A DNA stretch of 64,000 bases from Eledone cirrhosa (GCA_964016885.1 OZ024742.1:319920001-319984000); one strand, 5' to 3'; shown: positions 1,297 through 47,589, numbered from the stretch's first letter. Numbers and translations are program-made. Notes: generated by a model not told the origin, from the sequence alone.

Positions 1297-1297
<1 letters not shown>
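1..1297 (-). mobile_element. Tx1/L1-clade non-LTR retrotransposon copy 1, 5'-truncated ORF2 C-terminal part; 3' UTR runs off the window
   Basis: ORF 37..~1297 has KLLGVWFG, LSLKGRAEVAN and GGLGMP motifs homologous to copies 2-4. Homology stops where (GATA)n begins at 1298. Confidence 0.9.
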
Positions 1298-1330
<33 letters not shown>

Positions 1331-1340
1331 TATAGATAGA
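1298..1340. repeat. (GATA)n tract joining Tx1 copies 1 and 2
   Basis: Read directly. It is followed by TTTCTTTATT, which on the minus strand is the AATAAAGAAA 3' end of copy 2. Confidence 0.95.
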
Positions 1341-3868
1341 TTTCTTTATTTGCCACAAGGGCGCACAAGAAAAGGGGACGATACAAAGACATGCCGGGGA
1401 TTTTACATACAGTCGTGTAAAAATTATAAAACAAGCAATTATAACAATCGAAATCCCGAATAGGGGGGAAACGCCATAAATGGGTTGTTTAATACCCCGT
1501 CGATAGAACAACCCTCAACATCAGGAGCGTGTTGTGCAAGTGCTCCTGTCTTCCTTTTGCTCTCTTCTTTAACCTACAGGCTTATAAACAGAGAAGGCCC
1601 AATCACTCGGGCCATTTTCGCTTCATTCACCCACCTTTCAGTAAATTTACTGGGGTGCAGTGCCTCTCTCTCCACTCTGATTCTCCTTCTAAAGTGATAT
1701 TTAAAGAAGGGAATCAATTGTTGTCCGGAGAGAAAGGCATCTATCCTCAGTCCTCTCAATCTCATCCACCATATAATCTCTTTCACCATAGCCACTGTAC
1801 AGAGGAAAACCGCCTCTCTTTCGTTTTTGAAAGAGGCTGGCGCTTTGATCCTTACTATGGACTCGGAAGTCAACTGGATTTGTCCCATACGCGACAGCAG
1901 TTGTTCTGCATAGTTCCACAGGTCGGTTACACCCGGGCAGTGTACAATTGCGTGCAGGACGGTTTCAATGTCCTGCGCGCATCTTGGACACATCCTCTTA
2001 GAAGGATCCCTGCCAGAGCGTCCGTGCCTGTAGATCTTATCACGAACTGGTAGAGCTCCTCGGTAGCACTGCCAGGCCAGGGACCTCTGTAAGTTGTCCA
2101 TAGGTCCCGGGCGGAAAGTCCTACCAAACAGACAGGTGAGCTCATCGTCTTCGACGCCCAGAGTCTCTCCGAGCACGTCGTCGACCTTGTAACGTACAAT
2201 CCCTCTATAGAATGTCGAAGTGGAGTCTCCACTGATTGCTGTGCCCGCTTGCCAGAGGACTGTGAGCACCTGAGCGCGTTCAATGTGCCAGGCGACCATC
2301 GTTTTCGGTCTTTTCTTGACCCAGGACTGCTACTCCGTCAACGAGACGAGCTGTGGGAAAGCCTGTCTCACAAACGGTGCCCACACCGGTTGGGGGTCGT
2401 TGAGGAATACCTGGAGCTGCCGCAGCCTCAGCGCATGTTTGCGTATCATCAGCCACGGCATTCCCAGCCCTCCGTTGGAAGGGTGCTAACAGCAGACGGA
2501 TCTCCTCACCAGCGGAGTCCACTTCTTCCACAGAAACTGGAAGAGCATGCGTTCCATCTTGGCGAGGTGTTCACGGGGACAAAGCACGACAGTCAAGCGG
2601 TAGCAGATGACGGACGCTATGAAAGTGTTCGCCACCTCCGCTCGACCTTTCAAGGACAGTTTGTACTCTGCCCACTTCTGGGTGAGCGCAAACACCTTGG
2701 TTCCAGTTTTTCTCCACCTGGAGGTCTAGACCGAACCAGACCCTGAGCAATTTCACCGGTCCATCCGTCCAGCGTCCAACGACGCTGTCGGACGTCATCG
2801 GTTTGCCTCTCCACGTACCGAGTTGCAAATCGACAGACTTGTCCGGGTTAAGTGTTGCTCCCGTCAGCGTTTCGTATTCTTTCAGTAAGTTTCCGATCAC
2901 CCCGATTTTCAAGGTGCTCGACACCATTACGGTTATGTCGTCGGCATAAGCCGATGCCGCTTTGCGCAGTCCCGTTTCTAGGAGGATGCCCTCCAACAGC
3001 TCCAATTTCCGCAGTAGTGGCTCTAGAGTCAATACATACAGAATGGAGGAGAGAAGGCATCTCTGTCGAATGGAACGCGTGATTGCGAACGGCTCCGATA
3101 AGTAGCCGTTCACCTTGACCCTCGAGTAGCTGCTGGTGTGCATCGCCTCGATCCAGCCTCTGAAAACGGGACCGAAACCGGCGGCCTTGAGAACTGCTTC
3201 CAAGTATCGATGGTCGACCTATCGAATGCCTTAGACTGATCCAAATTGATCAGAACCCCACCGAGACCGGGTTTACTACCCACCCTCTCTATGATGTATC
3301 GCATGAGGTGGAGATTGTCGTGTATGGACCTGGTCGGGATTGCACACGTTTGCGCTTTCCCTACCAGGTTCTCGACGACAAGCGCTAACCTCGTCGCTAG
3401 CACCTTGGCCAAAATCTTTAACTCTATGTTGAGCAGAGTTATGGGCCTGAAGTTGTTAATTTCGTCCCCCCTTGTTCTCGTCTTTCCTGATCAGAGTTAC
3501 TACGCCCTAGCCTGCAGAACTGGGAATTCTCCCGTTCTGCTGCCAATTGCTGTAGACGGCTTCGAGGACGTCAGAGAACAAGTCCGGCATGCTTATGTAA
3601 AACTCATAGGGTAGACCATCTAGACCGGGTGACTTGCGTTTCCCGCAGCGGCCCAAAGCGTCCCGTATCTCAGTGTCCGTGATAGGTCTTTCGCAGAACT
3701 CGGCGTCCGTGTTCGAGAGACGCGGCAGGCCGTCGAGGTATGAACTAAAGTCCATTGCTCCGTTCGGCTCACCGTCGTTCTGCTCAAACAGTCGCGCAAA
3801 GTGCCGCTGAAAGGCCGCGCACATTTGCTTGGGGTCAAGTAGCACGCGTCCGTTTTGGTCTTTCAAAG
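1341..3868 (-). mobile_element. Tx1-clade LINE copy 2, 5'-truncated, frameshifted RT
   Basis: ORF pieces 3507..3866 (KSPGLDGLPYEFY), 3110..3412 (LDQSKAFDR), 2571..3203 (AYADD) and 1574..2299 (CPRC...ETVLHAIVHC). The 3' end is AATAAAGAAA+(TCTA)n and the 5' end abuts (GATA)n at 3871-3891. Confidence 0.92.
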
Positions 3869-3891
3869 ACAGATAGATAGATAGATAGATA

Positions 3892-6110
3892 TTTAGCAGT
3901 ATTAGTTATAGATGTTATCGCCACTTTAGCGGGGTGGTAGAATCAGTGGTCGTTAGTTGCCAGTGTGGTAAGTGATAGTATCCTCGTTGGATTATCTTGT
4001 TGACATAGACGTGAGGGAAGGTCCCTCGATCTATTTACCATCTATTTACAATATTCCTTTCGTCAGTATGGATTAAAGCAGCATGGATTAAAGATGTTAT
4101 TGAGACACGAGTAACATAATAACGACTTCAACCGCAGTAATTAGAGATGAAATGTTTGTTTATTTATATGGTTGAAGTTACAGATAAAAAGAGGTTACAA
4201 AAGGGAATGTGCCATTGCGCCGTTAAGCCGGCGAGGCTAGGGGTGCAATATCTCACTGCTACATTATGCGTGTTGCTGGCTCGAAGTTTCTGGTACAAGA
4301 GAGAGATTCTTCAAATCTTCGCGGTGAATTTCTTCCTCAGGGCGCGTAGGGATACATCCTCTTCTACTGGCGCTGATTGGCTGAACTGAGCCAAATCACG
4401 CACAGACAATGTATGTGAGCCCGCGGAATGTAGGTCACTACATCACCTCCGACCAGATTTTCAGCCGAAAATCGATAACGAAGAAACCAAGGACCCACAT
4501 ATTATTAAATCAGCAAGAACAAATGCTGAAAGAGCACATCAGTGAAAAAATAATTGAGCAGAAGGTTGCATGCAAGAACAAAGAATTAGGCGCTACGGGC
4601 CGTGTTGAGCCGCTGTGTCAAATGACCAGTTGTTTTGTTGTTTATACGTGACCGCCAAAGGTCTAACAAAAAACGGATAAAGTCTGACATGGGCGGAGTT
4701 GCTGTTCTTGCATTAAATGTTAATGGTAAGCGTTGTACCAGTAGCTGTGAACGAAGCTATTATGGTAGTTTACCAGTGCTGGCGAGAAAATGATGGCCCC
4801 CAGATGTATTGTCGAATGTGCTGTGGAGCCAGGAAAAAATGGCTGGTTGCTTTGTAAAGAACAAAAGGCAAGTTTAATCTGTAGGTGGGTTGCAGTGTAA
4901 ATTCCATAATTCGGGCGAATCCACAGAAGTGGCCGAAATGTTGACAAGTCCAGTTCAATTTGTTGCTTTCCCAGCGAGTCGGGCAAAAACAACAAGACGG
5001 ATGGCCGTCATGGACGATCAGTGTGCAACGAGATGCGAAGCCGTTTGAGTTCAGCTGCAATTAGTATTCTCGTGTTGCGGTGACTGTTTGAATCCAGTGG
5101 ATTAAGCTCTGTGAGCTGCTAGCATGTGACAGCATCTCAACCAGGTGAAAAGGGACTCGCAGAATATTACGTTTGAAGAACATATACCAAGAACAACATG
5201 TTGGTGTGTGATAAAAAAAAATGTGTGCATATGCAGGCATGTAAAACAGCAAAGAATGTGAATGAACAAAAACCATGAGCAAACAAATAGCAAAAGAGCA
5301 TAAAACAAGTAAATGCATTCTACAAAGAAATATGTGAATGTAACAAACTGATAATTCAAAGTCAATCTAGGGGAGCAGAGAAATTGCTCAATAAGTTCAA
5401 AGCTTTTCAAAGTCAAATTGTTCACACATCACCAGTGTACAGAAACTAGTTCTATCTGAAAACTGAAAAAGAAGTTTGTTAATGCCGTTAGGGGTTAGAT
5501 GTATGGTGTTTTTGTGAGATTTCGTGGCAATTTTCCCGTCCCGCCACACGAGAATACTTTAGCAGTATTAGTTATAGATGTTATCGCCACTTTAGCGGGG
5601 TGGTAGAATCAGTGGTCGTTAGTTGCCAGTGTGGTAAGTGATAGTATCCTCGTTGGATTATCTTGTTGACATAGACATGAGGGAAGGTCCCTCGATCTAT
5701 TTACCATCTATTTACAATATTCCTTTCGTCAGGTCGCCAATTCCAGCAGCATGGATTAAAGATGTTATTGAGACACGAGTAACATAATAACGACTTCAAC
5801 TGCAGTAATTAGAGATGAAATGTTTGTTTATTTATATGGTTGAAGTTACAGATAAAAAGAGGTTACAAAAGGGAATGTGCCATTGCGCCGTTAAGCCGGC
5901 GAGGCTAGGGGTGCAATATCTCACTGCTACATTATGCGTGTTGCTGGCTCAAAGTTTCTGGTACAAGAGAGAGATTCTTCAAATCTTCGCGGTGAATTTC
6001 TTCCTCAGGGCGCGTAGGGATACATCCTCTTCTACTGGCGCTGATTGGCTGAACTGAGCCAAATCACGCACAGAGAATGTATGTGAGCCCGAGGAATGTA
6101 GGTCACTACA
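3892..6110 (-). mobile_element. Non-autonomous LTR retroelement (TRIM/LARD-like), LTRs 3892-4442 and 5558-6110
   Basis: Two near-identical ~552-bp direct repeats with minus-strand termini TGTAGTG...ACTGCTAAA. GATA flanks both sides (3888-3891, 6111-6114). The ~1.1-kb interior has no gag/pol motifs. Confidence 0.9.
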
Positions 6111-6331
6111 GATATATTTCTTTATTTACCATAAAGGCATAAAAGGAAGGGTCAAATACAAAGGGGGAGTTTACATAAAACCGAGTAAAAAGGGTATAAA
6201 ATGAAAATAATCAAAAACAACCTCAAAAGGGAGTGGACGTGATGGGGGTTGCACACACCCCCGAAAAAGTGTGCAATCCTTTGCCCGGGGAGCATATGGA
6301 GAAGGTGCTCCCCCCTCCTTCACTTCTTTAC

Positions 6332-9300
6332 CTACAGGATGGTATACAGAGAAGGCCCATTTACACGAGCCATTCTCGCCACTATCACCCACCTTTCATA
6401 AAACTGCCCGTGGCCAAGCACCTCTCTCTCCATTCTTATCCTTCTTTCGAAGTGATATCGGAAGAAGTAGACCAGACTATCGCCAGAGAGGAAGTTTCCT
6501 GACCTCAGACCTTTCAATCGTGTCCACCAAACAACCTCTTTCAACATGGCTATTACGCACAGAAAAACCGCCTTTGCTTCCTTTGTGAAGAGGGGAGGCG
6601 GCTTGATTGTCATCACGGACTCGGCGGTCAATCGAATCGGCGCCACCCGCGACAGCAGTCGTTCGGCGTAGCCCCACAGATCAGTCACGCCCGGACATTG
6701 CACCAATGCGTGCGCAACGGTTTCTTCGTGACGCACGCATCTAGGGCAAATCTTTTTCGAGGCATCCCTGCCCGGGCGCCCGTGTCTGTAGAGCTTTTCT
6801 CGAACGGGTAGAGTCCCCCGGTAGCACTGCCAGGCCAGTGACTTCTGGAAGTTGTCCATTGGTCCCGGGCCGAAAGTCCTACCGAACAAGCTGGCCAGTT
6901 CGTCCTCTTCCATGTCCAGCGACTCTCCAAGGGTGTCATCGCCCCTGCTAGCCACCAGCCCTCTATAGAATGACGAGGTGGATTCTCCACCGATGGCCGG
7001 GTCCACTTGCCAGAGAGCTCTGAGCGCCTGGGTACACTCAGTGTGCCAGTCGCCCAGTTTTCCGGATCTTTGCTTGACCCAGGACTGCAGCTCGGTGAGC
7101 GAGACGTGTCTCGGAAAGGCTCGTCTCACGAACGGAGCCCACACCGGTTGACCAGTGAGGAATACCTGTAGGTGCCGTAGCCTTAATGTGTGCCTACGCA
7201 TCATCAACCACGGCATCCCCAGCCCTCCTTTCGAAGGTTGTTGGCAGCAGATGGATCTTCTCACCATAGGAGGGCGCTTTTTCCAAAGAAATTGAAAGAG
7301 CATGCGTTCCATGGTGGTGAGTGTTTCCTTAGGGCAAGGCACGACAGTCAGGCGGTAGTAGGTGACGGACGCTATGTAAATGTTCGCCACCTCCGCCCGA
7401 CCTTTCAGGGACAGCTTACACTTGGCCCATTTCTGGGTCAGTGCAAACACATTGCTCGTAACCTCGCCCCAGTTCTTTTCCACCTGGATGTCCGGTCCAA
7501 ACCAGACCCCAAGAAACTTCACCGGGCCCTCCGTCCAGTGTCCGACGACACCGTCGGGAGGCATCGGTCTGCCTCTCCACGCTCCGAGTTGCAGCCCGAT
7601 GGATTTTTCCCGGTTCAGTTTCGCTCCTGACAACGTTTCGTATTCCTCCAGTAAGGTGCCGATCGCCTCGATCTCCGAGTCGGTCGATACCATTACTGTT
7701 ACGTCATCGGTGTAGGCCGACACCGCTTTGCTCAATCCTGGTTCCAGGGGATACCCTGCAACAACTCCAACTTCCTCAGTAAAGGCTCGAGAGTCAATAC
7801 GTACAGAAGGGAGGAGAGAGGGCACCTCTGTCGAATGGATCGTGTGATTTCGAACGGCTTCAAAAGGTAGCCGTTCACCTTGATCCTAGAACAGATGTGG
7901 TTGCTATGTAAGGCAGTGATCCAGTCTCTGAAAACAGGACCGAACCCAGCCGCCGCTAGCACCGCATCCAGGTAACCATGGTCGACTCTATCGAACGTCT
8001 TAGACTGATCCAAGTTGATCAGGGCCCCACCGAAGCCGGGTTTGTTGCCAACCCTCTCTATGATGTATCGCATGAGGTGGAGGTTGTCGTGAATGGACCT
8101 GGATGGGATAGCACATGTCTGCGCATCTCCCACCAGGCCACCCACGACAAACGCCAACCTCTTTGCTAACACCTTGGCCAAAATCTTTAACTCTGTGTTT
8201 AGCAGGGTTATAGGCCGAAATTATTTATACTATCCCCCTTGTTCTCGTCCTTCCTCACCAGCGAGACTACGCTCTTGGCTACAGAACAAGGAATTCTCCC
8301 GTTCTGCTGCCAATTGCAGTAGACTGCTTCGAGGAGTTCGGAGAAGACCGGCATTGCTAAATAAAGTTCGTAAGGTATACCATCGAGACCTGGAGATTTG
8401 CGTCTGCTGCATTGGCTCAGCGCATCCCCGATCTCATCAGCCGAGATTGGTCCCTCGCAGGACTCTGCCTCTTCGCTCGAGAGACGTGGCAGGCCGTCGA
8501 GGTATGGACCGAAATCCATGTCGCCGCCCGGACCTTCGCCTCCCCCGAACAATCGGGCAAAGTGCCTTTGAAAGGCCTCGCACATCTGCTTTGGCTCCCG
8601 GATTACCCGTCCATCCTCATCTTGCAAAGACAGGATGGTGGATCGATTTCCACTCTTAGCTTCTGTCACGCGAGCCCAGCCAATGGCTTTGGCCCCCTCA
8701 TTACCTAGAGCACGTATTTTACTTCGAATGACGCAGCCTTCGTGCTTTGCATCGAAAAACTGGCTCAATGCCGTTCTTGATGCCAGCACTCTGGCCACAT
8801 CTTCGCTCTTGATTGCCTCTTCTAATTTACCTGTTAATTCTTTCTCGTTCCTATTCCTATCGGCAGCTAACATCTTGCTATAACTTATTGATTCTGTTCT
8901 AATCTCTCTTTTGAGAGATGCCCACCATCGGTTGTTGACGATTGCACCCGCCAACCTCTCCTTAACTAATCTGCTAATCTGGTCTCTGTAAGCCTCTTTT
9001 GCCGGTAAAGACAAATTAAGTTTCCAGTAACCGGGACCCTGTCTATGTGTTCTCTCGAGGTTGACTACGCAGGTCACTAATTTGTGATCTGTATAGCCAA
9101 CCGTGAGAATTTCTGGACAGCTTAATATATCCCTATCCTTACTTCTAACTAAGAATCTATCTAAGTACGATCTAGATTGACCACTGTGGTTCGTCAAAGT
9201 CCAGGTTGGCACAGTTGGAAAATCTAGTCGATATCTATCGACCAAGTTAAAACGGTCGAGTAACCCCTTGAGGCTGTTACACCCCCCTCTATTAGGACAT

Positions 9301-9764
9301 GCTCCTGCATAGTCCCAACGTGCATCTAGGATGTCATTCCAGTCCCCCGCTAGAAGCAGGGAACGCGACGTTCCCAGAAAAGTCTCCAGACGCTGGAAGA
9401 AATCGGGTCGTTCAGCTCCGAAAGGGGAGTAGACGGCGACCAGTCTCAAGGCCGCACCTCCACTACTGCCAACGTCTAGCACCAACAAACGACCTTCCGG
9501 GTCCGAGTGAACAACCTGTACGGCGAGACCCAGGTGTTTTTCCAGCAGTACGACAACCTCACCCCCACCTCCAGGTTGACAGAGAGATGCGTGCACCTCA
9601 ACGTCATCGAAGGTAGGGGCCAGCTGCCGCACAACGCTGATCCGAGTCTCACAGATAACCATTACATTTATACCACGTGACCTGAGGTCATTTAGAAGCT
9701 TTGCTTGCTTCCAAGTTGAGCCCAGGCCACGTGTATTCAAACATCCTACTCTTAACACATCCAT
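6332..9764 (-). pseudogene. Tx1 ORF2 (AP endonuclease + reverse transcriptase + C-terminal Cys motif), two frameshifts
   Basis: Endonuclease motifs CLNTRGL, GDWN, YLDRF, TDHK, GYWKLN; RT motifs SPGLDG, LDQSKTFDRV, AYTDD; C-terminal CPRC...H...C. Confidence 0.92.
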
Positions 9765-11689
9765 GTGGGCGGCAAAGCCAAAGGAGAGTGTAGAGACCTA
9801 CCTTTCTGCTTCCCGGGGTTCGGGTCGGACGACTTCCATGGGGTCGGAGATGTTGGGTGAAGGGGTGTCTTGTGGTGTGGTGGGGTTGGGGTGTTTGGAG
9901 TTCTGTTGGGGAGGGGAAGGGGAGGGGAAAAGCTTTTTAGGAGGACGCGGTTTATGGGTTTGACAGAGGGTGGTCCTACGTCCTCCTTAAAATCCTTTTT
10001 TAGTTTTTGGTAGAGGTTCATTGGGATCTTTATTAATTTAAAATGTGGGTAGTTTTCTGAAGAAGCAAAGCTTACCCCTTCGGTTTGTACCGAAGGGTTA
10101 TTGTTTATGAGTTCATTTAATTTATTATTGTTTCTGTTGATGTAAGTATAGTGTAATGTCTTTTTTTCGGATGGTGTGAGTGTTTCGAAGAGGAGAGGGG
10201 CAGGTTTGGTTTTGTTTGTTGCTGGAGGGGTGTTTTGTGTTTTGTTGGATTGTGTTGACATTTGGGTAGGGGCTGTTTGGCCTTGTGTGTTTTGCACATG
10301 TTTTCTTTTTTTCCTTTTAATCTGTCTGAAGGACTCCGTTTCTTCCCCCGAATTCGTTGGGTTATCTTCAGTGTTGGAGGGAAGAGGTATGTTTGCTGGT
10401 AGTGTTTCCGTGTTAGTTTTCTTTGTGGGGGAGATGGATGTCACTATGTTAGACTGTGTTGTGTGTTGTGGCTGCGGTGGTTGTGTTGTTTTATTGAGTG
10501 AGGGGTTGGGTGGGACTGTGTTTTGTTTTTGGGTAATGTGTTCTGTCTGTTTCTGCTGTGGTGGTGGTGTAGTTTTACTGAGGGACGGGTTGGGTGGGAC
10601 TGAGTTTTGTTGTTTGTTTATCTGTTGTGGTGGTGGTGGAGCTGGTGTTGGTAGCAGGGTTTTCTTCTTGTTGAGTTGGGGACAAGCCGCCTTCAGGTGC
10701 CCTCTGCCTGCACAGATATGACAGGACGGCCTTCTCCCCTCCACGCTAATGTTTATATACCCGTGGCCCTCTAATAGGGTTCTGTCGGGTATTTGGGCAA
10801 TGCGTTCAGGCTTCATTTGCACTACAACTTCTATACCTGTTCCACTGAACGCATTGCCTGTGGTTTTCCCAATGGAAATCCCGTTCTCATTCGCTGGATC
10901 GATCAAGCCAGCTATGAGCCAGCAGTAGTCCATATCTGGCATCATCGCATCCAGCCATATGCGCTGAGTTCTTTTACCCATATAAGATGGATAAAAGGTA
11001 AAATTTGTCGAACGAATCGGCGACAAAGCATATTTTTTTGCCGCCGATTCGTTGTTCATAATAATGGCTAGGCTTCCATAGAGCCTGTCTCTTCTTATGA
11101 AAGTGGCTTCATTAAGTACTTCTCTAAGTACCGCTTTAATTTCTGCTTGTGTTGGTTGTTGTGGTTTTTTTTAGATGCTGTTGATGGTGCGGAAAACGAC
11201 CGTCCGACTTTCAATATCTTTGGTGAGTTCCTGGGGCATTTTTACTGACAAGGCTCCATTTTCCCCTTGAGTTATGAATTGTTTGGCGTTTTTTATTCTT
11301 TGTGCCACAACTGAAATATTTTCAGGTATGTATGTTAAAGATTTTTTTGTTGTTTGTGCAAATGAGATGTTATTGGTGTTGACTTTGTCGTCTGTTTTGC
11401 TTTCTGTTATGATGTTGCTGTTTTCAAATGATATTTTTGTGTTTGTTGTTTCTTTGTTTGTGGTATTAATATTGTCATGCAATTCTTTCATATTTTTTTT
11501 GTTGTTGGAATCAATCTCCAGACCTGTGTCCTCGTCGACATTTTTCTCCGCACATTCAGCTGTTTTTCTTTTATTTTTTCTTTCCTTCTCTATGACGTTA
11601 GTTGGGAAGGAAGGGGCGACTAAAGCGTGCGAGCTTACAACTCTTACCGCTGTCCACCCACCACTATTTTCGTTAGCTTCGTTTAACAT
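9752..11689 (-). pseudogene. Tx1 ORF1 nucleic-acid-binding protein with CCHC zinc knuckle, frameshifted near 11100-11170
   Basis: CHICAGRGHLKAAC (CX2CX4HX4C) followed by a P/Q/T-rich tail. Homologous to copy 5 ORF1 (EGRRPSC, VKPxNRVLLK). Confidence 0.85.
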
Positions 11690-11970
11690 TTCTCCCAGAC
11701 GATTGAAATTTTATGCAACAAAATTTTATGCAACAAAATTTTATGCAACAAAATTGTTCACCCCTGGGAGGGGCGAAAATGAGCTGACCCACCGCCTGAC
11801 AGTTCAGACGGGGGGTCAAGCTACACAATAGTATCAAAATTAAAATTAAACTTACAAAATTTCCGCAATAAATTGGAACAAAACTTCTGCGCGAAGTGAA
11901 TTACGTCTACGCTATCGAACAGACGACAGCTAGATCAATAGATATATAGATAGATAGATAGATAGATATG

Positions 11971-14900
11971 TTTCTTTATTAGCCACAGGCGCACAAAAGA
12001 AGGGGACAAATACAAAGGGGGAAGTTTACATACAATAAAAACGTGTAAAATGTTATCACAAATGGAATTTAAAAAGTTAGTTGATTTTTCCCAATAGAGC
12101 GAGACAGTTTATATGGGTAACACATACCCCCGAAAAAATGTGCAACCCTTATCTCCAGGAGTACGAAGAGTTTGTACTCCTTTCCTCTCCTCCTCCTTTT
12201 CCTCAACCTACAGGCTGATATAGAGAGAAGGCCCATTCATTCGGGCCATTCTCGCCACTTCCACCCACCTTTCATAAAACTTGCTGGGGTACAGCACCTC
12301 TCTCTCCATCCTGATTTTTCTTCCAAAGTGGTATTTGAAAAAAAGAATCAGTTGTTGGCCGGAGAGAAAGGTGTCTGACCTCAGCCCTTTCAACCTTGTC
12401 CACCATACAACCTCTTACGCCATAGCTATCACACAAAGGAAAACCGCCTCTCCTTCGTTTTTGAAGGAGGGTGGCGGTTTGATCATGACAATGGACTCGG
12501 TGGTCAACCGGATTGGTCCCACCCGCGACAATAGTCGTTCTACATAGCCCCACAGGTCAGTGATACCCGGGCACTGTATGAATGCGTGCGCGACGGTTTC
12601 TTCGTCTCGCACGCACCTCGGACAGATCTTTTTTGCATGGTCCCTGCCCGGGCGCCCATGTCTGTAGAGCTTGTCTCGAACTGGTAGAGCTCCACGGTAG
12701 CACTGCCAGGCCAGGGACTTTGGGAAGTTGTCCATCGGTCCCGGGCGGAAGGTCCTACCGAACAGACTGGCCAGTTCATCTTCCTCTACGCCTAGAGTTT
12801 CACCTAGCGCGTCGTCGCACTTGCTGCGGATCAACCCTCTATAGAATGACGAAGTGGAGTCTCCACTGATCGCCGGGTCCGTCTGCCAGAGGGCTGTTAG
12901 CGCCTGAGCACATTCGATGTGCCAATCGCCCATTTTCCTCGGTCTTTGCTTGACCCAGGACTGCAGCTCGGTCAGCGAGACGAGTCGTGGGAAGGCTCGC
13001 CTCACGAACGGGGCCCACACCGGTTGTCCGGTGAGGAATACGTAGAGATGCCGCAGCCTGAGCGCGTGTTTGTGCATCGTCAACCACGGCATCCCCAGCC
13101 CTCCGTTAGAAGGGTGTTGGAAGCAGATGGATCTTCTCACCAAAGGAGCTTGCCTCTTCCAAAGGAATTGGAAGAGCGCGCGCTCCATTTTGGCGAGCGT
13201 TTTGGCTGGACAAGGCACGACGGTCAAGCGGTAGTAGATGGCGGACGCTATGAAAGTGTTCGCCACCTCCGCTCGACCTTTCAAGTATAGTTTGCACTCG
13301 GCCCACTTCTGGGTGAGTGCAAACACCTTGGCCGTCACTTCGTTCCAGTTCTTCTCCACCTGGAGGTCCGGACCAAACCAGACCCCGAGCAGCTTTACCG
13401 GCCCTTCCGTCCGACAACGCCATCGGAAGGCATCGGTTTGCCTCTCCACGATCCGAGTTGCAAACCGATGTACTTGTCCCGGTTCAGCTTCGCTCCTGTG
13501 AAACTTTCGTATTCCTTCAGTAAGGTGCCGACTTCCTCGATTTGCGAGGCGCTCGACACCATTACTGTCACGTCGTCGGCGTAGGCCGACGTCGCTTTCC
13601 GCAGTCCCGGTTCCAGAGGGATGCCCTGCAATAGCTCCAGCTTCCGCAGTAGTGGCTCGAGAGTCAGTACGTACAGAAGGGAGGAGAGAGGGCATCCCTG
13701 TCGAATGGATCGCGTAATATGGAACGGCTCCGAGAGGTAGCCGTTCACCTTGACATTTGAGCAGATGTTGCTGTTGTGCATTGCAGAATTCCAGCCCCTG
13801 AACACGGGTCCGAAGCCTGCCGCCTCGAGCACCGCATCCAGGTAACGATGGTCAACCCTATCGAAAGCCTTAGACTGATCCAAGTTGTTCAGGGCCCCAC
13901 CGAAGCCGTGTTTACACCCTACCCTCTCTATGATGTATCGCATGAGGTGGAGGTTGTCGTGTATGGACCTGGTCGGGATTGCGCATGTCTGCGCTTCTCC
14001 CACCAGGTTCTCGACGACAAGCGCCAGCCTCTTTGCCAACACCTTGGCCAAAATCTGTAACTCTGTGTTTAGCAGAGTTATGGGCCGGAAGTTGCTTATG
14101 TCATCCCCCTTATTCTCGTCCTTCCTGATTAGTGTGACCACGCCCCCGGTTACAGAACTGGGAATTCTCCCGTTCTGTTGCCAGTTGCAGTAGACCGCTT
14201 CCAGGAGACCGGAGAATAAGTCCGGCATTGCTACGTAAAATTTGTAGGGTAGACCGTCGAGACCTGGAGATTTGCGTTTGCCGCATTGGCTCAGCGCGTC
14301 CCCTATCTCAGTGGCTGAAATCGGCTTTTCGCAGAACTTTGCCTCGCTGTCCGAGAGTCGCGGTAGGCCGTCAAGGTATGGACCGAAATCCATAGCCTCT
14401 CCCGGCGCGCCGCCCCTCCTGAACAGTTGAGCAAATTGCCGCTGAAAAGCCGCACACATCTGCTTCGGCTCACGTATCACGCGTCCGTTTTGGTCCTTCA
14501 AAAACCGAATCGTGGACTTGTTGCCACTTTTTCCTCCGTCACTCGTGCCCAGCTAACAGCTTTGGCTCCCTCGTTTCCTAGAGCACGTATTTTGCTTCTG
14601 ACAACGCAGCCCTCGTGCTTTGCGTCGAAGAACTGGTCCAAGGCCGTTCTCGTTGCTAGCACGCTGGCTACGTTGCCACTTCTAATTGCCTCTTCTACTT
14701 TATCTACCAATTCCTTCTCGGTTCTATTTCTATCTAACGCTAATTCTTTCCTAAAAACTATCGAGTCTAATCTAACTGCCCTCTTGAGAGAGTACCACCA
14801 TCTGTTGTTGACAATGGCCCCCGTCAAGTGCTTTTTAACTAAAGTGCTAATCCGTCTACTGTAGGCTTTGCTTGTCGGTAACGACAAGTTCAGCTTCCAG

Positions 14901-15070
14901 TAGCCGGGTCCTTGTCTATGGGTTCTATCAAGGTTGGTCATGCAGGTCACTAGTTTGTGATCTGAATAGGCAACCATGAACATTTGTGGACAGCTTAACA
15001 TGTCCCTATCCTTATTTCTAACTAGAACCCTATCTAGGTACGATCTAGATGTTCCGCTACGATTACTCCA
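11971..15070 (-). mobile_element. Tx1-clade LINE copy 4, 5'-truncated inside the endonuclease domain
   Basis: ORFs 14498..~15070 (SYLDR, SDHK), 13395..14501 (RQGCPLS, YADD), 12415..13395 and 12208..12393. The 3' AATAAAGAAA is followed by a (TATC)n tract at 11931-11968. Confidence 0.92.
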
Positions 15071-16047
15071 ATCACGATAATGGCTGAGTGAGATGCCATT
15101 GTTATAACATAGGTAATCTGCCAAAAAATCGTCTCCGTTTGGAAAAATGTCTCCAACACAAGGGAAAAGGAAAACAAAATCGCTTGTTTTTCTCTGTCAA
15201 ACAACTGGACAGGAAAAAGAATGCATCCGAGACAACATGTAAAGGATAGACTAACCGAGCAATGTCATTAACAAGGTATAGGCAGGGAATTTAAAACTAA
15301 AACCAACACGGCGGACGATTTCGCGCCAAAAACACTATTGATTGAGAAGAAAGCCGCCATCTTGTCATCCTCAAAAATTTTAGCCAGAGAAAAGAAGAAA
15401 AGGAGAAAAAACATTCATACAATTGTTGTTTCCCTAGGAAACTAGCGGCAATATAATGTTATCTTTTTTTTTTTTTGTGTTTGTGTGTAAATAAATGGAA
15501 TGTTCGCTTTGCACATATGAGGAGTTTGATTGTTAAACGTTACAGATAAAGATGCTGAAATCAGTAAAATACAGCCAGATCAGAATGAAGCGTGTTGTTC
15601 TGTATTAAATGTTTTTTTCTTGCATTTTTTTTCCCATTCTTTTTTTTTTTTAAATGTCGGGGTCACCAATTTAGAATGTTAGTTTCAGTGTATATATATT
15701 ATTAAGAATGACAATAAATGCAGATGAGTGTTGTGACATGGTTTTACTTCACAGAAGTCAAATAAATTAATAGAAATAATTTTTACCACATGTTGATGGT
15801 CAGTTGGTCACAACTCCCAGACCGGAGTGTGTAGAGAAGAACAGAAATCTTCTCTTGGTAAGGTTCAAGTGTTTCTTTAGGCTGCCGGCGCAGTAAGTGA
15901 GAGTTGCTGCCTTAATGTCCTCAAATATATAGTCCCCAGGGGGACGCAACTCCATTTAGTACATGGATCTGCCACTGGGAGTCGCGACCGTCACAAAGGG
16001 ACGCAACTCCTATACGTGCTGAGTTACAGCCGTAAGGGGCCGCTACA
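15071..16047 (-). mobile_element. LTR retrotransposon remnant: 5' LTR (15670-16047), tRNA-Trp PBS (15656-15668) and leader
   Basis: The minus strand reads TGTAGCG...TTCTAAA, then T, then TGGTGACCCCGAC, complementary to the tRNA-Trp 3' end. The termini are of the same type as the other two LTR elements. Confidence 0.72.
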
Positions 16048-16213
16048 CACTAAATAAAATTAGTCTGTTAGTTGGGATTTAAAAAAACCCCTCTGAATGG
16101 AAAAAAGGATGAGTATTGAGTACTACCTAATTTTCAAATTGGTTAGCTGTTTCTAAACAAAGCCTGCTTTGTTTCTCCCTATTTATATACATATATATGT
16201 GTATATATATATG

Positions 16214-16272
<59 letters not shown>

Positions 16273-16882
16273 AAAAGTTATGAAATGAAAGGAGCTGTAT
16301 GGTTACTAAAAACAAGGTTTAGGATGGTGGTTAGGACGGAACAGGAGGAGAAAGGAAGAAAGGAGTTTCCATCGTCAGCTGTAAATGTTTCCCGAACCGA
16401 TGTTTCGGCACTCAATTACAGGACATCGGTGTAGTTCGGGTGCGCACAAGGCCTTTTATTAATCAAAAGGTCAGGTGGAAAAGGAGAGAGAAAAGGAAAG
16501 AGAGGGAAAGGAGGAAGAACAGGGGGGGGGGAGATGAGGAGAGAGGAAGAAGGGGAAAAATAGGAAAGGAATAGAAGAAAAAAAAGTGTACAGATCCCAT
16601 CGTGGGAAGACACAGGTAAAAGTAACATGCAAAAAAGTAACCGTGGAAAAATAGGGAAAGTAAGTTGTGGCCAACCTGGGAGACTTTAGCCTGGTGGTCA
16701 GCTACAACTCAGAGCTGGTATAATCGTGCTGCCTCTCACATAGACAGGAGAAAGTGAGAGAGACACGGGCAACCAAAAGTGAGGAGGTGAAGGGAAAGGG
16801 AGATAATCCAGAAGGGATTACGACGGTGGTAAAAACATGCCGCAAAGATTGCGGACAGAGAGGTCATCAATATATATATATA

Positions 16883-17437
16883 CAGGGTGCCGACGATATG
16901 TGTTCGCAAGATTACTGTCTAGGAAAAAGTAACACAGTAGTTTTTTTAAGATATATTTATCAAACTTGGGTCAGTTTGTCTTCATGACTTGTTCTTTCGA
17001 TCTTATTCGATAAACCCGCCATTAGCTTTGATGACGGCCTCAAGGCGGCCTCGGAACCAGCTGCAGGCCTTAGTCACTGTTTCCCGACTTAGGCCCCTAA
17101 AGGCACTTGTGATCCTGGCCTTCAGATTGCCTTTCGTATTGCAGCTAGATCTGTTGGTGTCTCGTTCCACTGCGCCCCACACAAAGAAGTTGAGGGGGTT
17201 GCAGTCAGGCGAGCTGGGAGGCCAGATGTCAGGTGAAGTGTGGTTGACGAACTTCTCTGACAGCCAGGCTTGATTCTTTCGGCTGGTATGGCAGGGCGCT
17301 GAGTCTTGCTGCCACATGTACGGCCTACCTGCAGCTACCTGGTCGATCCAAGGCTTTACTACCTCGCTCAGAACGTGGATGTAGCCATTGGTGTTCAGCT
17401 TGAGGCCCTCAGGGAAGAAGTGAGGTGGCATGACGTC
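16883..17437 (-). mobile_element. Truncated Tc1/mariner (maT-type) transposon: one TIR plus transposase C-terminus
   Basis: TA-CAGGGTG TIR; ORF 17003..17431 with QQDSAPCH and WPPSSPDCNPLN; nearly identical to 28143-28680. Confidence 0.9.
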
Positions 17438-17632
17438 TTGTGCTCACAGTCGCTTCACGCCATGAAGCCGGGATAAGCACCGGCCAAATGAGCCTTCTGG
17501 CTTAAGACAGACTTTAGACTTATGGCCTTCCTGCCGAGCCAGTGGGATGGCGTCATCGTATGGCTAAAACAGCAACGTGCTGTGACCAGCTGCGCCGAAT
17601 GGCGCCCGACAGACTGGTCGGTCAAGGTGATA

Positions 17633-17687
<55 letters not shown>

Positions 17688-17859
17688 TATATATAATATG
17701 AAGTATTTCCGTAGGAAAGGTAAAGGAAAAGAGAGTGCTCTATGTAGGCTACAGAGCTTTTTAGTTATGTAATAAACAACATAAGATAATTCATTTATCA
17801 GTGGTTTCTTGAAGAGAGCCCAGGCTGAAAATGCCCAAGAAATGCTGTATGTCAATACA

Positions 17860-18172
17860 CCGCCCCTATGACTCTATCAGGAGTTACGGGGCCATACCAT
17901 ATGTCACCTTGATCTTGACCACCTTGACCGACCAGTCTGTCTGGCGTCCATTTGGCGCCGCTGGTCACAGCACGTCGTGCTGTTTTAGCCATAAGATAAC
18001 GCCATCCCACTGGCTGGGTGGGCAGGCCGGTACTCATTTCTACAGCTGAGTAAACTGGAGCAACGTGAAATAAAGTGTCTTGCTCAAGGAAACAACACAT
18101 CACCCGGTCTGAGAATTGAACTCACAACCTTTCGATTGCAAGCCCAATGCTCTAACCACAAAACCATGCACC
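17860..18172 (-). mobile_element. tRNA-derived SINE; a partial inverted copy lies at ~17520-17630
   Basis: Minus-strand A-box-like TGGTTAGAGC and B-box GTTCAATTC, followed by a CCTTGAGCAAGACACTT core. Confidence 0.7.
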
Positions 18173-19351
18173 TTCACCCGGGAGTCGGGTTACAATACCA
18201 TATGTATGGATGGATATATATATATATGGATATGTAGTAAGACGCCTCACGCTCCTTGATAGAACAACGCCAGTTGAGAACGCCAGAAAGAAAAGACAGA
18301 CATCCACTGGAAAGCCGACTGATCACACGCCAGAAACCAGCCTCTGTACAACACCATTGTTTGTGCTACATCAAAAAATAAACGTATATTTCATCTCTAA
18401 TTTCTGCTGTTGAAATAATTATTATGTCACTCGTATCTCGATAACATCTATAATCAATACTGCTAAAGTAGTGACCGACGTAAGAATTTAACGCAGCCCT
18501 TCTTTTTCATTCAGTTGAACTTTTATTGTCACATTGCCGGCCTTTTTTCGCAACTTGCGAAAATAAAAAATATTCCTTTTAAAATTATTGAAAAGTTAGT
18601 AGTATTTCAAAAACTTTTTGCTACACTTGACAACAACAACGACAGCAGCAGCAGCGACAACATTGTTTAACCACTGACCAAAAGAGGGAATAGTGAGTGG
18701 CAGCTTCATAGCCTTACCGACGCAAACCACCACACATCGGAAATATCAAAACGATTCATTCGTGTCGATAATTTAGAGCAACTTTTTTTTATGCACTTGC
18801 ATATTCCATTTCCGTTGCCAACTTTTTCGCAACTTACAGAAGAAAAAAGAAAAAAGAGTATTTTTCCAAGGTGGCGTTGCGTTCCTTCCCAGTTTTGTAA
18901 CGGACACATTTTTTGAATTGCGTGTGTGTTCCATGACTGATCAAGAGAGAAGAGACTAAACTTTTTTTTGTGAACATAACTGCCCCGCATGGGGATATAC
19001 ATGCCTTACCTTTTTCTAAGGGATTTTTAGCCACTGGCTACCTTTGTTGATATCCAACGCGGATATATTTTTAAAAAAAACAAACATTTTTTTCCTCCTC
19101 TTTTTTTTTACCTTATTTGATTTGGCTGGTTCGTTGAAGCAACGCGAGGGGACAGACGTTGAAGGAAAATTTTTTTTTAAAAGATATATATCTGTATTTT
19201 ATGTATTTTTCATATTTCCTTACGTTTTGGAATGTCTGTTTCTTTTTGCCCTTTAACTTTTTCTCAATATTGGCTGTTCTCTTTTCACTGTACAAGGGTA
19301 CATTAGTTGCTGTTTAGATATATATGTATATATTTTTTTATAAAAGTTAAC

Positions 19352-20113
19352 ATGAATGTGCCACATTTGCCCGCCTTTACTGGAAAACCTAAGATGTGGT
19401 TTGCCCAGTTACAGGCGTATTTTACGGTCTGTAAGACCGAATCTGACCAGCGCCTCGCTGTACTGATTAGCGGCCTTCCCCCTAATCTAGCAGATTCGGT
19501 CCAAGACCTAATTACAGAGCCCCCCTCTGACTTGACGTATGAGATTTTGAGGAGGAATTGTAAGTCGGTAGAGAGTCGTTTTCGGTCATTGATCGAGGAC
19601 GAACGATTAGGTGACAGGACTCCTACCGCTTTTCTCCGGCATTTGCGGGATTTGAGCGATTCCCAAGATCAGGATAGCCCTTTCCTGAAGCAATTGTTCT
19701 TCTCTCGCCTACCTCAAGAGGTACAGGCGATCCTAGCCCATATGCTAGAGGTAAATACCCTGGATCACATTGCTGTCTCTGCTGACAAAATTGTAGAGGT
19801 GACGAAGAGAGACACTTCGAAGCCAAAGTTCGTTGCTTCCTCTTCTCTTCCTCAATCACGCTCATCAGCGTCTGATGACATATTAATCACCGCTATGGAA
19901 GCCATGACTCGTCAAATGGCGGAGTTGTGCAAGGAATTCACGTCCTTTGGACGGCAGAGGAGCCGCTCACGACGTTATTCAACTTCTCGCCACCGTAGCC
20001 CTTCCAACACACCAGGAACACCATATTGTTATTACCATGAAAGATATGGTAAAAAAGCCGCCCGTTGTAGGCCTCCTTGTGCTTACGAGGGAAAAGACGA
20101 CCAGAGTCACTAA
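19352..20113 (+). CDS. gag: Gag polyprotein with CHCC (CX2HX9CX3C) motif
   Basis: [29 protein letters not shown] and [18 protein letters not shown]; first ATG at 19352. Confidence 0.88.
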
Positions 20114-23100
20114 CGGCGGATAGTGCGCTCTGCGAAACAACATCTAACCGCCACTTTTTCATTGAGGACCTGCTGTCAGGTAGAGCTTTTCTGGTTGACA
20201 CAGGTGCAGCTTGTTCCGTATGGCCTGTGTGTTATATGAAGGAGACTCCCCCTGAGACGCCTATTGAGTTGCAGGCAGTAAATTGTTCGCCGATTCGAAC
20301 TTTCGGACAAATCTCGTTACCTTTGCAGTTTCGTAATCTGCGGCGCGAGTTTAAATGGATATTTACTGTCGCTGCCTTGCCGTATCCGATTCTAGGCGCG
20401 GATTTTCTTCACCATTTTTCATTGACGGTGGACCTTCGTGGTAACCGCCTAATTGATGGCATCACGGGATTAACTGTTGTTGGCAAGGCAGCAGGAGTTC
20501 CAACGGTTAGCCCGACATTTTTTCTTGCTAACACCGGTGATCCTTTCCATGCGTTGTTGAACTCGTTCCCGCAACTGACTCGGGGAAATTTTCGATTTGA
20601 TGAACCAACTCATACCACGGAGCACTTCATATCTACAACTGGTGCTCCCGTTTTCTCTCGTCCTCGTCGCTTGCCTCCGGACAAACTCAAAGCAGCACGA
20701 TCAGAGTTTGATCATATGCTGCAAATGGGGATTATTCGTCCGTCCACGAGCCCGTGGGCGTCCCCATTACACATGGTACCGAAAGCGAATGGCGATTGGA
20801 GACCTACTGGAGATTATCGACGCCTGAATTCGATAACGGTACCGGACCGTTATCCTATCCCTCATCTGCAAGACTTTGCGTCTTCGTTGCAGGGATGCAA
20901 GATATTCTCCAAACTGGATTTAATTCGTGCGTACCATCAAATTCCTGTCCATAAAAATGACATTCCAAAAACGGCTATAGTTACGCCATTTGGGTCGTTC
21001 GAGTTTTTGACTATGCCGTTCGGATTAAGGAATGCCGCTAGTACTTTTCAGCGGTTTATGGATGAGGTTACTCGCGGCCTCGATTTCGTCTATACCTATA
21101 TTGACGACCTGCTCATTGCTAGTTCTTCTCCAGAGCAGCATACGCACCATTTGAATCTTCTTTTCCGCCGATTGAAGGCGTATAACGTGCAGCTTAATGC
21201 ACCCAAATGTGTTTTTGGTGCTGAGTCACTGACTTTCTTGGGTCACGTCATCGATGTTGACGGTATTCGGCCCCGGCCTGAGCGAGTTAAGGTCATAGAG
21301 GATTTGCCTCCACCGACCTCACTACGTCAGTTACGCCAGTTCTTAGGTCTGGTTAACTTTTATAGGCGTTTCGTGCCAAATTGTGCAAAATTGCTTTTCT
21401 CCCTGACAGAAATTTTGAAAAATTGTCGGAGGAAGAACAAAGATATTTCTTTGACAGACACTCAACTTGCTGATTTTCAGCACGCCAAAACTGTTTTGGC
21501 TAATGCTTCGTTACTGACTCACCCGGTACCCGGTGCAAAGCTAACGCTTTGTGTTGATGCATCGGATATCGCTGTGGGCGCAGTACTACAGCAAAACATC
21601 AATGGTTACCAGCAACCGCTGGAGTTTTTTTCCAAAAAGCTAAATCCTGCTGAGACGCGCTACAGCACCTTTGGAAGAGAGCTTTTAGCCATCTATTTGG
21701 CCGCGAAACATTTTTCACATGTGCTAGAGGGTAGACAATTTACTATCCTCACTGACCATAAACCATTGACTTTTGCTTTGAGAGCGAAGGCTGATAAATA
21801 CTCGCCCAGAGAGACGAGGCACCTTGATTTCATCTCGCAATATACGAGTGATATCCAGCACATTCCGGGTTCACTAAATACAGCGGCCGATGCTTTGTCC
21901 CGCTTACCCGTGACAGCGATCTCGTCATCCTCTGACATAGATCTGACTCGTTTGGCTGCGGATCAGCCTCCCCTTGAGTCATTGGATGTCACATCGCCCG
22001 AGTTTGCGAATTGCGAGATGAAATACTTGCCTCTGTCGACTGCAGTTGGCCAAATTCTCTGCGACGTCTCTTTGGACGTGCCTAGGCCCTTCGTTCCAGA
22101 GAATCATCGTCGGACCGTGTTTCTGGGATTACATTGTATCTCGCATCCAGGATCTTCTGCCACAGCAAAGCTCATATCAGCTAGATTTTTCTGGCCAAAT
22201 ATGAGGCGTGAAATTGCTGCTTGGTGCCGTTCCTGCGTCGCTTGCCAGAGATCAAAGGTCCATCGACACGTCAAGGCTCCCCTGGGTACCTTTGCTAACC
22301 CAGATGCGCGTTTTTCACATATTCATATTGACATAGTGGGACCTTGGCCTGTCAGCGATGGTTTTTCTTATCTACTTACCGTCATTGACCGTTTTTCGAG
22401 ATGGCCTGAGGCCATCCCCTTGAAAAACATCACCGCGGAGACAACAGCACGTGCTCTTGTGTCTGGATGGATCTCTCGTTATGGAGTTCCATCCACAATA
22501 ACTACCGACCGTGGACGACAGTTCGAGTCGAGCCTTTTCCTCGAGCTGTCAAAATTAATTGGTGCTAAACGCATTAGAACTACGGCATACCATCCCGCTT
22601 CGAATGGTATGGTGGAGCGTTTTCACCGCCAACTGAAGGCCTCCTTAATGGCCTCAATGGACTCGGCGCATTGGAGCGAGTACCTCCCTATTGTGCTACT
22701 AGGGATTCGGTCAACGGTGAAGGTCGACTTTGGATTTTCACCGGCCGAAGTACTGTATGGTGCCCCTCTGACGTTGCCCGGGCAAATGCTTGCCCCTATC
22801 GATCTTGATGCCCAAGATCACGCTTCCTACGTGTCCCGTTTGCGCTCCTATTTCCAGGATTTGCCGCCAATGGACACTAGGAAACAAACTGTCAAGACTG
22901 CTGTCCCGAGGGATATTGCCTCGTGGACGCATGTCTTTGTAAGGAATGATACGGTGAAGCCCCCGCTCACACAGCCTTACACTGGACCTTACCGTGTCTT
23001 AGCGCGCTCGGCTAAGCATTTCACGTTAGATATTAAGGGGTCCAGGGAGACAGTTACATTAGACAGGCTTAAGCAGGCGCACCTTGACACGGACGCTGTG

Positions 23101-23271
23101 GTTCCTGATCCACGAACCCCTTCGTATTTGCCTGTTGAGCGAACGACTGTTCCTGAACCACCATCATCGCCTGTCCCTACACCACCACCATCGCCACGTT
23201 ACAAGAACACGACCCGTTCAAGTCGTAGGGTCCACTGGCCCAAAAAATTTTGCAGCACCGTCTATATTTAG
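20077..23271 (+). CDS. pol: Pol polyprotein (protease-RT-RNase H-integrase), probably expressed by -1 frameshift
   Basis: LVDTGA protease, [17 protein letters not shown]...TDH RNase H, HHCC and DDE integrase. The frame is -1 relative to gag, with G GGA AAA at 20089-20095. Confidence 0.95.
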
Positions 23272-24110
23272 ACTATGTTAGCTGCACCTTTTTTTTGCCT
23301 CTGTGTTTCTGCTTTTTCTTTGCCTTGTTTCTTTATGCATGCATGTCGGTTTTTTTTTAACATTTTTCAAATCCTTATTCTGGATTCAATTTTTGCTAGA
23401 GCGGATAGCTCCCCCTTGTTGCATTGTTCGCCATCTTACTCCACATTTGAGTAATGACATCGATTTTCGATAATTTGAAAATCTGGCTCGAGGTACTGTA
23501 GTAAGACGCCTCACGCTCCTTGATAGAACAACGCCAGTTGAGAACGCCAGAAAGAAAAGGCAGACAGCCACTGGAAAGCCGACTGATCACACGCCAGAAA
23601 CCAGCCTCTGTACAACACCATTGTTTGTGCTACATCAAAAAATAAACGTATATTTCATCTCTAATTTCTGCTGTTGAAATAATTATTATGTCACTCGTAT
23701 CTCGATAACATCTATAACTAATACTGCTAAAGATATATATATATATGTATTTATATATTGTTGTGCGAGAATACGATGCCCCTTGGCGAGAATGGGCTGG
23801 ACCACTACATATAAATAGTAGCGGCCTGAGTAAGTGGGCAAGTTGGTATTAGTTCCACAGATCATGTGTTGATAGTCAAAGTTGGAGTTCAAGTTAGTGT
23901 GTTGGATTGTTGTTACGTTACGTGTGCTTATCGCAGTTTATTTCGATTATATTGTTATTACACTGTTTGCAGTGTATTTGTTTATCCATAAGGACATAAC
24001 ATAAATATATAGTCAGAAATTAGTACGTCCATTTCAGAATAATACTCAGAGTGAATGGGTATATATACCCACTAAATACATGTTTCCTTGTGGTTGATTG
24101 GGTGATATAC

Positions 24111-47400: not shown

Positions 47401-47589
47401 TTCTTTTCGGGTTATAGCTACTGTCGCTCAGAGAGTGGGATTGGCTCAGTGCACAGTCTTTCCTCACTTTAAAAATACTCGTCACGCACAGGCATTGCAC
47501 AAGTGCATTAATAATTGTTGATAGTGTACTATTATTATTATTATTATTACTATTATTATTACTTTTTTTTTTTTTTTTTTTTTTTTTTC

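Follow-up and report, generated by a model that had tools for sequence, protein, structure and literature searches.

A window of 64,000 nucleotides from Eledone cirrhosa, which is the whole stretch of DNA analysed here, holds two LTR elements that share their termini, one small and non-coding and the other a Gypsy element. Which proteins move the small element, and how did it come by these termini? A preliminary description proposed that it is mobilised in trans by the CsRn1-like family of its neighbour. We call the small element S and the Gypsy family of the window A, and A', B, C, D and E are further autonomous families found here. The genome searched comprised 3.0 billion bases in 1,796 contigs. 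The elements and their surroundings in the window are as follows.

1297-15196, minus strand: tandem LINE copies with Pfam domains (endonuclease, RT, zf-RVT), their 3' ends adjoining GATA/TATC tracts
3892-6110, minus strand: S, a non-coding LTR element
3888-3891, plus strand: target duplication of S, first copy (GATA; TATC in element orientation)
3892-4442, minus strand: S 3' LTR, 551 bp, TG...AA
4443-4499, minus strand: S pre-3'LTR (PPT) segment, with autonomous family D as top match (score 33/45) and A outside the top four
4500-5550, minus strand: S internal region, where tblastn matched neither Gag nor Pol of A
5551-5557, minus strand: junction of a deletion of about 480 bp that removed primer site and leader, private to the window copy among the copies scored
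5558-6110, minus strand: S 5' LTR, 553 bp, a five-part mosaic
6111-6114, plus strand: target duplication of S, second copy
18233-23731, plus strand: A, a Gypsy element
18229-18232, plus strand: target duplication of A, first copy (GATA), with a (TA)n tract around it
18233-18467, plus strand: A 5' LTR, 235 bp, TG...AA
18468-18753, plus strand: A leader, also present in intact S copies, with a predicted pairing partner of the U5 tip at 18596-18606
18469-18498, plus strand: A tRNA-Trp primer site with a 2-nt deletion, and a second 8-nt box (18491-18498) complementary to tRNA-Trp
19352-20113, plus strand: A gag ORF with a DUF7041 match, a CX2HX9CX3C motif and a candidate -1 slippery heptamer at 20089-20095
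20071-23271, plus strand: A pol ORF (stop to stop), PR-RT-RH-IN, GPY motif
23497-23731, plus strand: A 3' LTR
23732-23735, plus strand: target duplication of A, second copy

Both elements, with their coordinates and LTRs, were confirmed as first described, and so were the 4-bp GATA duplication at each of them (on the plus strand) and the insertion of S into a LINE GATA tract, where it occupies the last GATA unit of the tail tract 3872-3891. A is surrounded by a (TA)n tract and not by the LINE GATA tract. The LTRs are identical at 541 of 550 aligned bases in S and at 231 of 235 bases in A. The common LTR start TGTAGT and the common 29-nt end also stood; both S LTRs and the A 3' LTR carry this U5 tip without a difference (BLAST E 9e-10), and the A 5' LTR has it with 2 mismatches. 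The claim that only terminal cis-signals are shared proved too narrow, as an 89-nt U5 block (82-84%, E 1e-20 to 2e-23), the primer site and the leader are common to S and A as well. The pre-3'LTR motif had been counted among the shared signals; its likeness is real and weak (33/44, E 0.01), but the segment of S is closer to families D, E, C and B than to A.

The window copy of S is damaged, since it lacks the segment of about 480 bp directly after the 5' LTR that holds the primer site and leader. Of the 29 other S loci retrieved, 27 have the primer site at this position. In every other long match among 40 candidates scored out of 2,322, the alignment breaks at query 555-577 (at 726 in one case), and additional DNA lies in the gap. 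An intact copy is 2.69 kb long and has two LTRs, a primer site, a PPT and a target duplication. From tip through primer site to leader it resembles A over 338 nt (273/355 columns, E 9e-87), mostly differing by indels, and about 310 nt of this is leader.

S showed no Gag or Pol match, and the longest stop-free frame in the intact copy L009 does not exceed 108 aa. About 1.2 kb of its interior has no match in any of the 20 autonomous copies tested. A retrozyme, Cassandra, Helenus or Ajax type was rejected, because the LTR contains no hammerhead, 5S or tRNA gene sequence; an Rfam scan for hammerhead, 5S, tRNA gene and small RNA gave no match inside the elements (E up to 1 in 4 loci). In the available text on animal TRIM and LARD elements, ta-TRIM with lennie (PMC4558846) and Helenus and Ajax (PMC10886601) are likewise non-coding, with LTRs, a primer site, a PPT and a 4-bp duplication, and their partners were likewise inferred via shared cis signals. 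S differs from them in that its partner is backed by chimeric insertions and not by shared termini alone. Without an Rfam RNA in its LTR and at about 2.7 kb, S lies above typical TRIMs and below LARDs; it exceeds the narrow TRIM limit (about 1 kb, PMC10886601) and falls within the wide one (4 kb, PMC4558846).

A single-copy S would have refuted the proposed mobilisation, but it is a high-copy family of independent insertions. Its LTR-start 18-mer occurs 1,795 times in the genome, a count that includes B-family LTRs and several S sub-lineages, and is preceded by a PPT at 510 of these places. The 22-mer at the S-A junction, specific to the sub-lineage of the window, has 203 exact occurrences, and the A/A' LTR start has 323. 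A 4-bp target duplication flanks 40 of 47 S and A pairs (one set by hand; one, L050, a false match).

Judged by its domain and motif features, A is CsRn1-like. The Gag motif CX2HX9CX3C, the tRNA-Trp primer site, the 4-bp duplication, a Pol of PR-RT-RH-IN with GPY and the overlapping -1 frames correspond to the feature set of the clade (CsRn1, PwRn1, AgCR) as given in the available text of PMC2582038, and no env or chromodomain was found in A. On the other hand, the A LTRs end in AA and not CA, its primer site has a fixed 2-nt deletion, and here at least six co-resident families swap U5 ends, which sets them apart from the clade as that text presents it (PMC2582038). The CsRn1 clade is described as common in cephalopods (PMC6238403).

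Host tRNA-Trp(CCA) genes were found, and their 3' complement fits the A primer site save for the 2-nt deletion. The same deletion marks 19 of the 31 A-tipped 5' ends of A and 18 of the 26 of S, and perfect tRNA-Trp copies were found directly after A LTRs. The first four loci matching the tRNA pattern were not tRNA genes; two regions with tandem clusters of tRNA-Trp genes were (L222 579-5454 and L223 506-9301). The 8-nt box past the primer site (18491-18498 in the window) is complementary to tRNA-Trp on the 5' side of the T loop, is present in 15 of 20 autonomous copies spanning four families (A, A', B and C), and is likely a second primer contact. In these four families a 1-nt spacer separates LTR end and primer site, and the LTR ends are mostly not the usual CA (AAA in A and B, ACA in A', TTA in C; window 18465-18467, L053, L238-L255). 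The sister family A' (L053, L054, L217) is 91-94% identical to A in Pol but has a different LTR of 450-460 bp, a combination that marks LTR exchange between autonomous families. More unassigned LTR families with tRNA-Trp primer sites occur at L259, L262, L270, L205, L207 and L208.

Partners are usually assigned from shared termini and primer sites. Here shared termini fail to discriminate because all six families start with TGTAGT and have similar primer sites. Family B is about 74% identical to A in Pol and has the same LTR start as S. The first 349 positions of the S LTR are 87-92% identical to B, and the S U3 is closest to B in 28 of 28 copies scored, L107 being left out as a copy without primer site. 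The leader is closest to A in S copies with A-type tips. A B-type PPT is found in eight S copies, and some copies end at the basic B LTR end. Past this B-type end, the window S LTR runs on through the remains of an earlier primer site with the beginning of a leader, then 80 nt of U5 from A', another scar with a short unit, and GTGGCGA leading into the A tip.

5741-6110, minus strand: S LTR 1-370, homologous to the LTR of family B (87% over 1-276, 90-92% over 278-349)
5745-5833, minus strand: U5 block inside S LTR 1-370, also 82-84% like A
5709-5740, minus strand: scar 1, a former primer site with the beginning of a leader
5630-5707, minus strand: U5 end of the sister family A', 80 nt at 89%
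5591-5629, minus strand: scar 2 and a short tip unit without match among the sampled families, terminal in copy L095
5558-5590, minus strand: scar 3 (GTGGCGA), overlapping the 29-nt family-A U5 tip at a 3-base microhomology

The donors of three of these modules are B, A' and A. The order of captures can be read, with due caution, from the nesting of LTR ends: each intermediate end is terminal in some S copy with its own target duplication, and the scar 1 stretch is the working primer site after the LTR in the shorter-LTR copies L071 and L124. In the window 3' LTR, a short local duplication at 4066-4077 (minus strand) replaces part of scar 1. The stack is likely a record of successive helper switches, in which each tip capture would correspond to one switch.

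Layering is not confined to this sub-lineage or to the U5 side. In another S lineage different units are stacked, three copies ending in a family-C tip (scores 30, 25 and 21 of 30), and some sub-lineages end in B-family tips. The PPT side of S is layered too, with 26 nt of B followed by 57 nt of D. One-sided LTR extensions occur in the S copies L103 and L073 and in the A copy L041, where the extra unit differs from the copy's own tip. The same stacking is present in autonomous B and A' copies, and it is therefore not peculiar to parasites. Several short tip units match none of the six sampled autonomous families; for this reason they may be products of error-prone slippage rather than helper captures. 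Single-base differences between paired LTRs were not in excess at the LTR tips (21/1,400 vs 193/16,374, p 0.31).

The evidence that names A as the partner comes from chimeric insertions. A search pattern that placed an A-type tip before a perfect tRNA copy (18-38 nt) gave 17 loci, of which 4 join S to A (L260, L265, L266, L274), 2 S to S, 2 A to A and 6 A/A' to unassigned DNA, while 3 belong to other families. S was joined to B, C, D or E at 0 of the 17; the pattern demanded an A-type tip, which biased the search against S-B and S-C chimeras. L266 consists of an S LTR, a 38-nt tRNA copy and an A LTR, and L260 of an S LTR, tRNA and an A-clade U3 within a GATC duplication. In L274, an A U3 is crossed to the S U5 stack, followed by tRNA and antisense A pol. 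L265 carries an A LTR, a tRNA copy, an inverted S interior with a B-type PPT and an A 3' end, all within a single GCAA duplication. At L268 and L272, the tRNA copy is followed by tRNA-sense sequence, as in a fold-back reverse-transcription product.

Since the elements' own primer sites lack the perfect tRNA complement, the S-A joints were most likely made in reverse transcription with both templates present. In Ty3, dead-end plus-strand DNA extended into the tRNA accumulates and the primer site is not inherited from the tRNA, according to the available text of PMC5371799; the same behaviour would account for the chimeras as well as for the stability of the 2-nt deletion. The Ty1/Ty3 plus-strand strong-stop cycle described there resembles our case in the primer site not restored from tRNA, the plus strand running into tRNA and the split primer site (PMC5371799). 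In our case, by contrast, such products lie integrated in the genome, attached to the template of a second family. The chimeras strongly suggest that S is co-packaged with A.

The ages of the insertions are compatible with this partnership. The median LTR-LTR K2P of S copies with the A tip (S-A) was 0.009 in 19 best hits and again 0.009 in 5 unselected copies, against 0.012 in A (n=20), 0.014 in A', 0.020 in B (n=5) and 0.004 in C (n=15), in samples that are small and, for A, B, C and most S-A copies, biased as best hits. S-A looks to overlap A, with B older and C younger. The other S classes gave 0.021 (older tips), 0.013 (B-type PPT, n=8) and 0.029 (other S), and because the B-PPT copies overlap S-A, the capture stages are not cleanly separated in time. 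When folded, all 4 A regions and 4 of 5 S regions with an A-type leader were predicted to pair the U5 tip with a leader site in a stem of up to 11 bp, at modest z-scores (-0.35 to -3.4 for A and A-leader S copies). The 11-mer that would form the leader side of this stem was found in all 26 5' ends of A and in 18 of 24 of S. These predictions suggest that tip, primer site and leader may travel together as one folded RNA module.

The proposed mobilisation of S in trans by a CsRn1-like family is thus supported by the shared primer-site deletion and leader, the overlapping LTR ages and the tRNA-bridged chimeras, and we infer that A supplies the proteins. Family C could also serve as a helper, considering that it is younger than A and has the same target motif and similar termini, and the D-like PPT segment of S counts against A. 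We consider that S, a high-copy non-coding element with a family-B LTR body, probably uses family-A particles and probably reached A via repeated template switches during reverse transcription. S RNA would be packaged, copied and integrated by family-A particles. Strong-stop DNA that had started to copy the primer site or tRNA would then jump, where a few bases of microhomology allow it, to the U5 end of a second template packaged alongside. Such a switch would add the U5 tip, primer site and leader of the new partner and leave the old primer site as a scar in the LTR. The lengthened LTR would appear first at one end, and the next round would copy it to both. Integration follows the loose ATR|nATn|YAT palindrome of the clade, a motif matched by (TA)n tracts and by part of the GATA sites.

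More tentatively, and with a confidence that stays below the halfway mark, S may carry an ordered log of these switches, in which entry into each new CsRn1 particle adds, through dead-end strong-stop DNA, the U5 tip, primer site and leader as a packaging and priming module, and the chimeras would be genomic proof of co-packaging. If so, the parasite-helper history and the switching mechanism could be read directly from the LTR. Stacked scars would offer a concrete, countable mechanism for helper switching. The tRNA-bridged chimeras name the co-packaged partner from assembly alone, a test applicable to any genome, and the case warns that LTR similarity can mislead, as the LTR body says B and the chimeras say A.

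The soybean LTR swapping of Du et al. (2010) is reportedly of a related kind, with non-autonomous elements moving to a new autonomous partner and template switching proposed. Autonomous/non-autonomous pairs and partner switches are already known from several available reports (PMC9744471, PMC4558846, PMC10886601, PMC13570524, PMC6894440). The partnership of S and A is therefore of a known kind, and what is unusual is how legible the record of helper switching is. In wheat, RLC_Angela and Wilma/Sabrina/WHAM likewise include non-autonomous elements that change their autonomous partner, with template switching proposed (PMC9744471). There, as far as the available text goes, switching was read from LTR trees or LTR exchange, whereas S kept its old U3 and appended new U5 tips with ordered primer-site scars (PMC9744471). 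In the accessible part of PMC10886601, the upkeep and change of dependence between non-autonomous LTR elements and their partners is described as unknown. Our literature search, with most subscription papers, Repbase notes and supplements outside its scope, found no report that traces stacked primer scars to named donor families, nor one of parasite-helper chimeras bridged by tRNA.

It is rather unlikely that S lacks a helper of its own and is packaged by whichever CsRn1 family is co-expressed (A, A', B, C, D), with the tips as neutral by-products of shared particles. The common TGTAGT start and similar primer sites of all six families would fit, as would the target motif common to S, A and C, the B, A', A and D parts held together in S, and L265, whose B-type S part is joined to A. 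Decentralised mobilisation has also been proposed for sugar-beet elements (PMC13570524, available text). However, the cross-family tRNA-bridged S joints found all go to A (4/17, with 0 to B-E), and tip, primer variant and leader are all A-like in one sub-lineage.

That the mosaics arose after insertion, by nesting, deletion or gene conversion between chromosomal copies, and say nothing on packaging, is improbable. Two composites of A end, S interior, S 3' LTR and A pol, at L220 1-3592 (within a GACT duplication) and L221 381-5104, do fit ordinary nesting followed by deletion between shared leaders, or else may be reverse-transcription products. In contrast, the joints at L260, L265, L266 and L274 hold 18-38 nt of tRNA complement that the elements' own primer sites lack, and the LTR extensions stop at LTR tips with primer sites next. 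A search of 20 fetched regions for hybrids of A LTR and S interior was set aside, as most short A-LTR pairs were plain A deletions.

It had further been suggested that the integrase favours GATA/TATA-type repeats and converges on the LINE target. We regard a preference for GATA repeats as very improbable. The target duplications are indeed richer in GATA than background: at about 1,285 host junctions, counted on the 5' flank only and with 3' LTRs of mutated PPT remaining in the denominator, the upstream 4-mer was GATA at 20 and TATC at 21, together 3.2% against 0.89% in a background of ten 10-kb regions and 37 host flanks (3.6-fold; GATA 3.5-fold, TATC 3.7-fold). The window copy, L120 and L161 lie in GATA tracts, above a background expectation of 0.02%. 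The part of the suggestion that concerns TATA stood (139 of about 1,285, 10.8% vs 1.7-3.3%), with 13 of 15 TATA sites in (TA)n tracts. However, GATA is a minor class, 41 junctions in all, that follows from a general palindrome, and an upstream tract was found at 1 of 24 fetched GATA/TATC sites (upstream side only examined). There were 78 different 4-mers among 121 distinct sites, loci picked by TSD excluded. S as a GATA-microsatellite-specific element was rejected, as most insertions are not in one repeat type.

The signal lies mostly outside the duplication. ATR at -3 to -1 was found at 37 of 79 S, 15 of 39 A/A' and 7 of 17 C sites vs 7.2% in the background, C at -3 at 0 of 135 sites, YAT downstream at 21 of 59 and G at +3 at 0 of 59. 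After three sites, two of them B copies, were dropped from the S set, a comparison of S with A at seven positions showed no difference (lowest p 0.051). The two sites in the window match ATR|nATn|YAT perfectly. The position frequencies predict about 2% GATA+TATC (hand product), so that a small excess at most remains. Since the palindrome is common to S, A and C, convergence on the LINE target was not borne out, and as a clade trait the motif cannot name the helper. Palindromic target motifs are the rule for LTR elements, and the Drosophila Gypsy-group motifs are similarly AT-rich palindromes reaching up to 3 bp past a 4-bp duplication, clade-shared and often with a TATA core; here, most information lies at -3 to -1, and CsRn1 is not among the families covered in the available text (PMC3276498).

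Least credible of all is S as an internal-deletion derivative of A, which would explain the shared tip, primer site, leader and U5 block but is refuted by the B-type U3 (87%), which does not match A, with the unmatched interior of about 1.2 kb and the occurrence of the U5 block in both A and B also against it.

Elsewhere in the window, the LINE copies are about 73-79% alike and apparently inserted into each other's tails, with three 3' ends adjoining GATA/TATC tracts. A non-LTR element with a 980-aa open frame and matches to RT and, weakly, C2H2 fingers lies at 44485-47427 (minus strand), and a 41-bp satellite of about 274 copies (92% matches) occupies 52798-64000.
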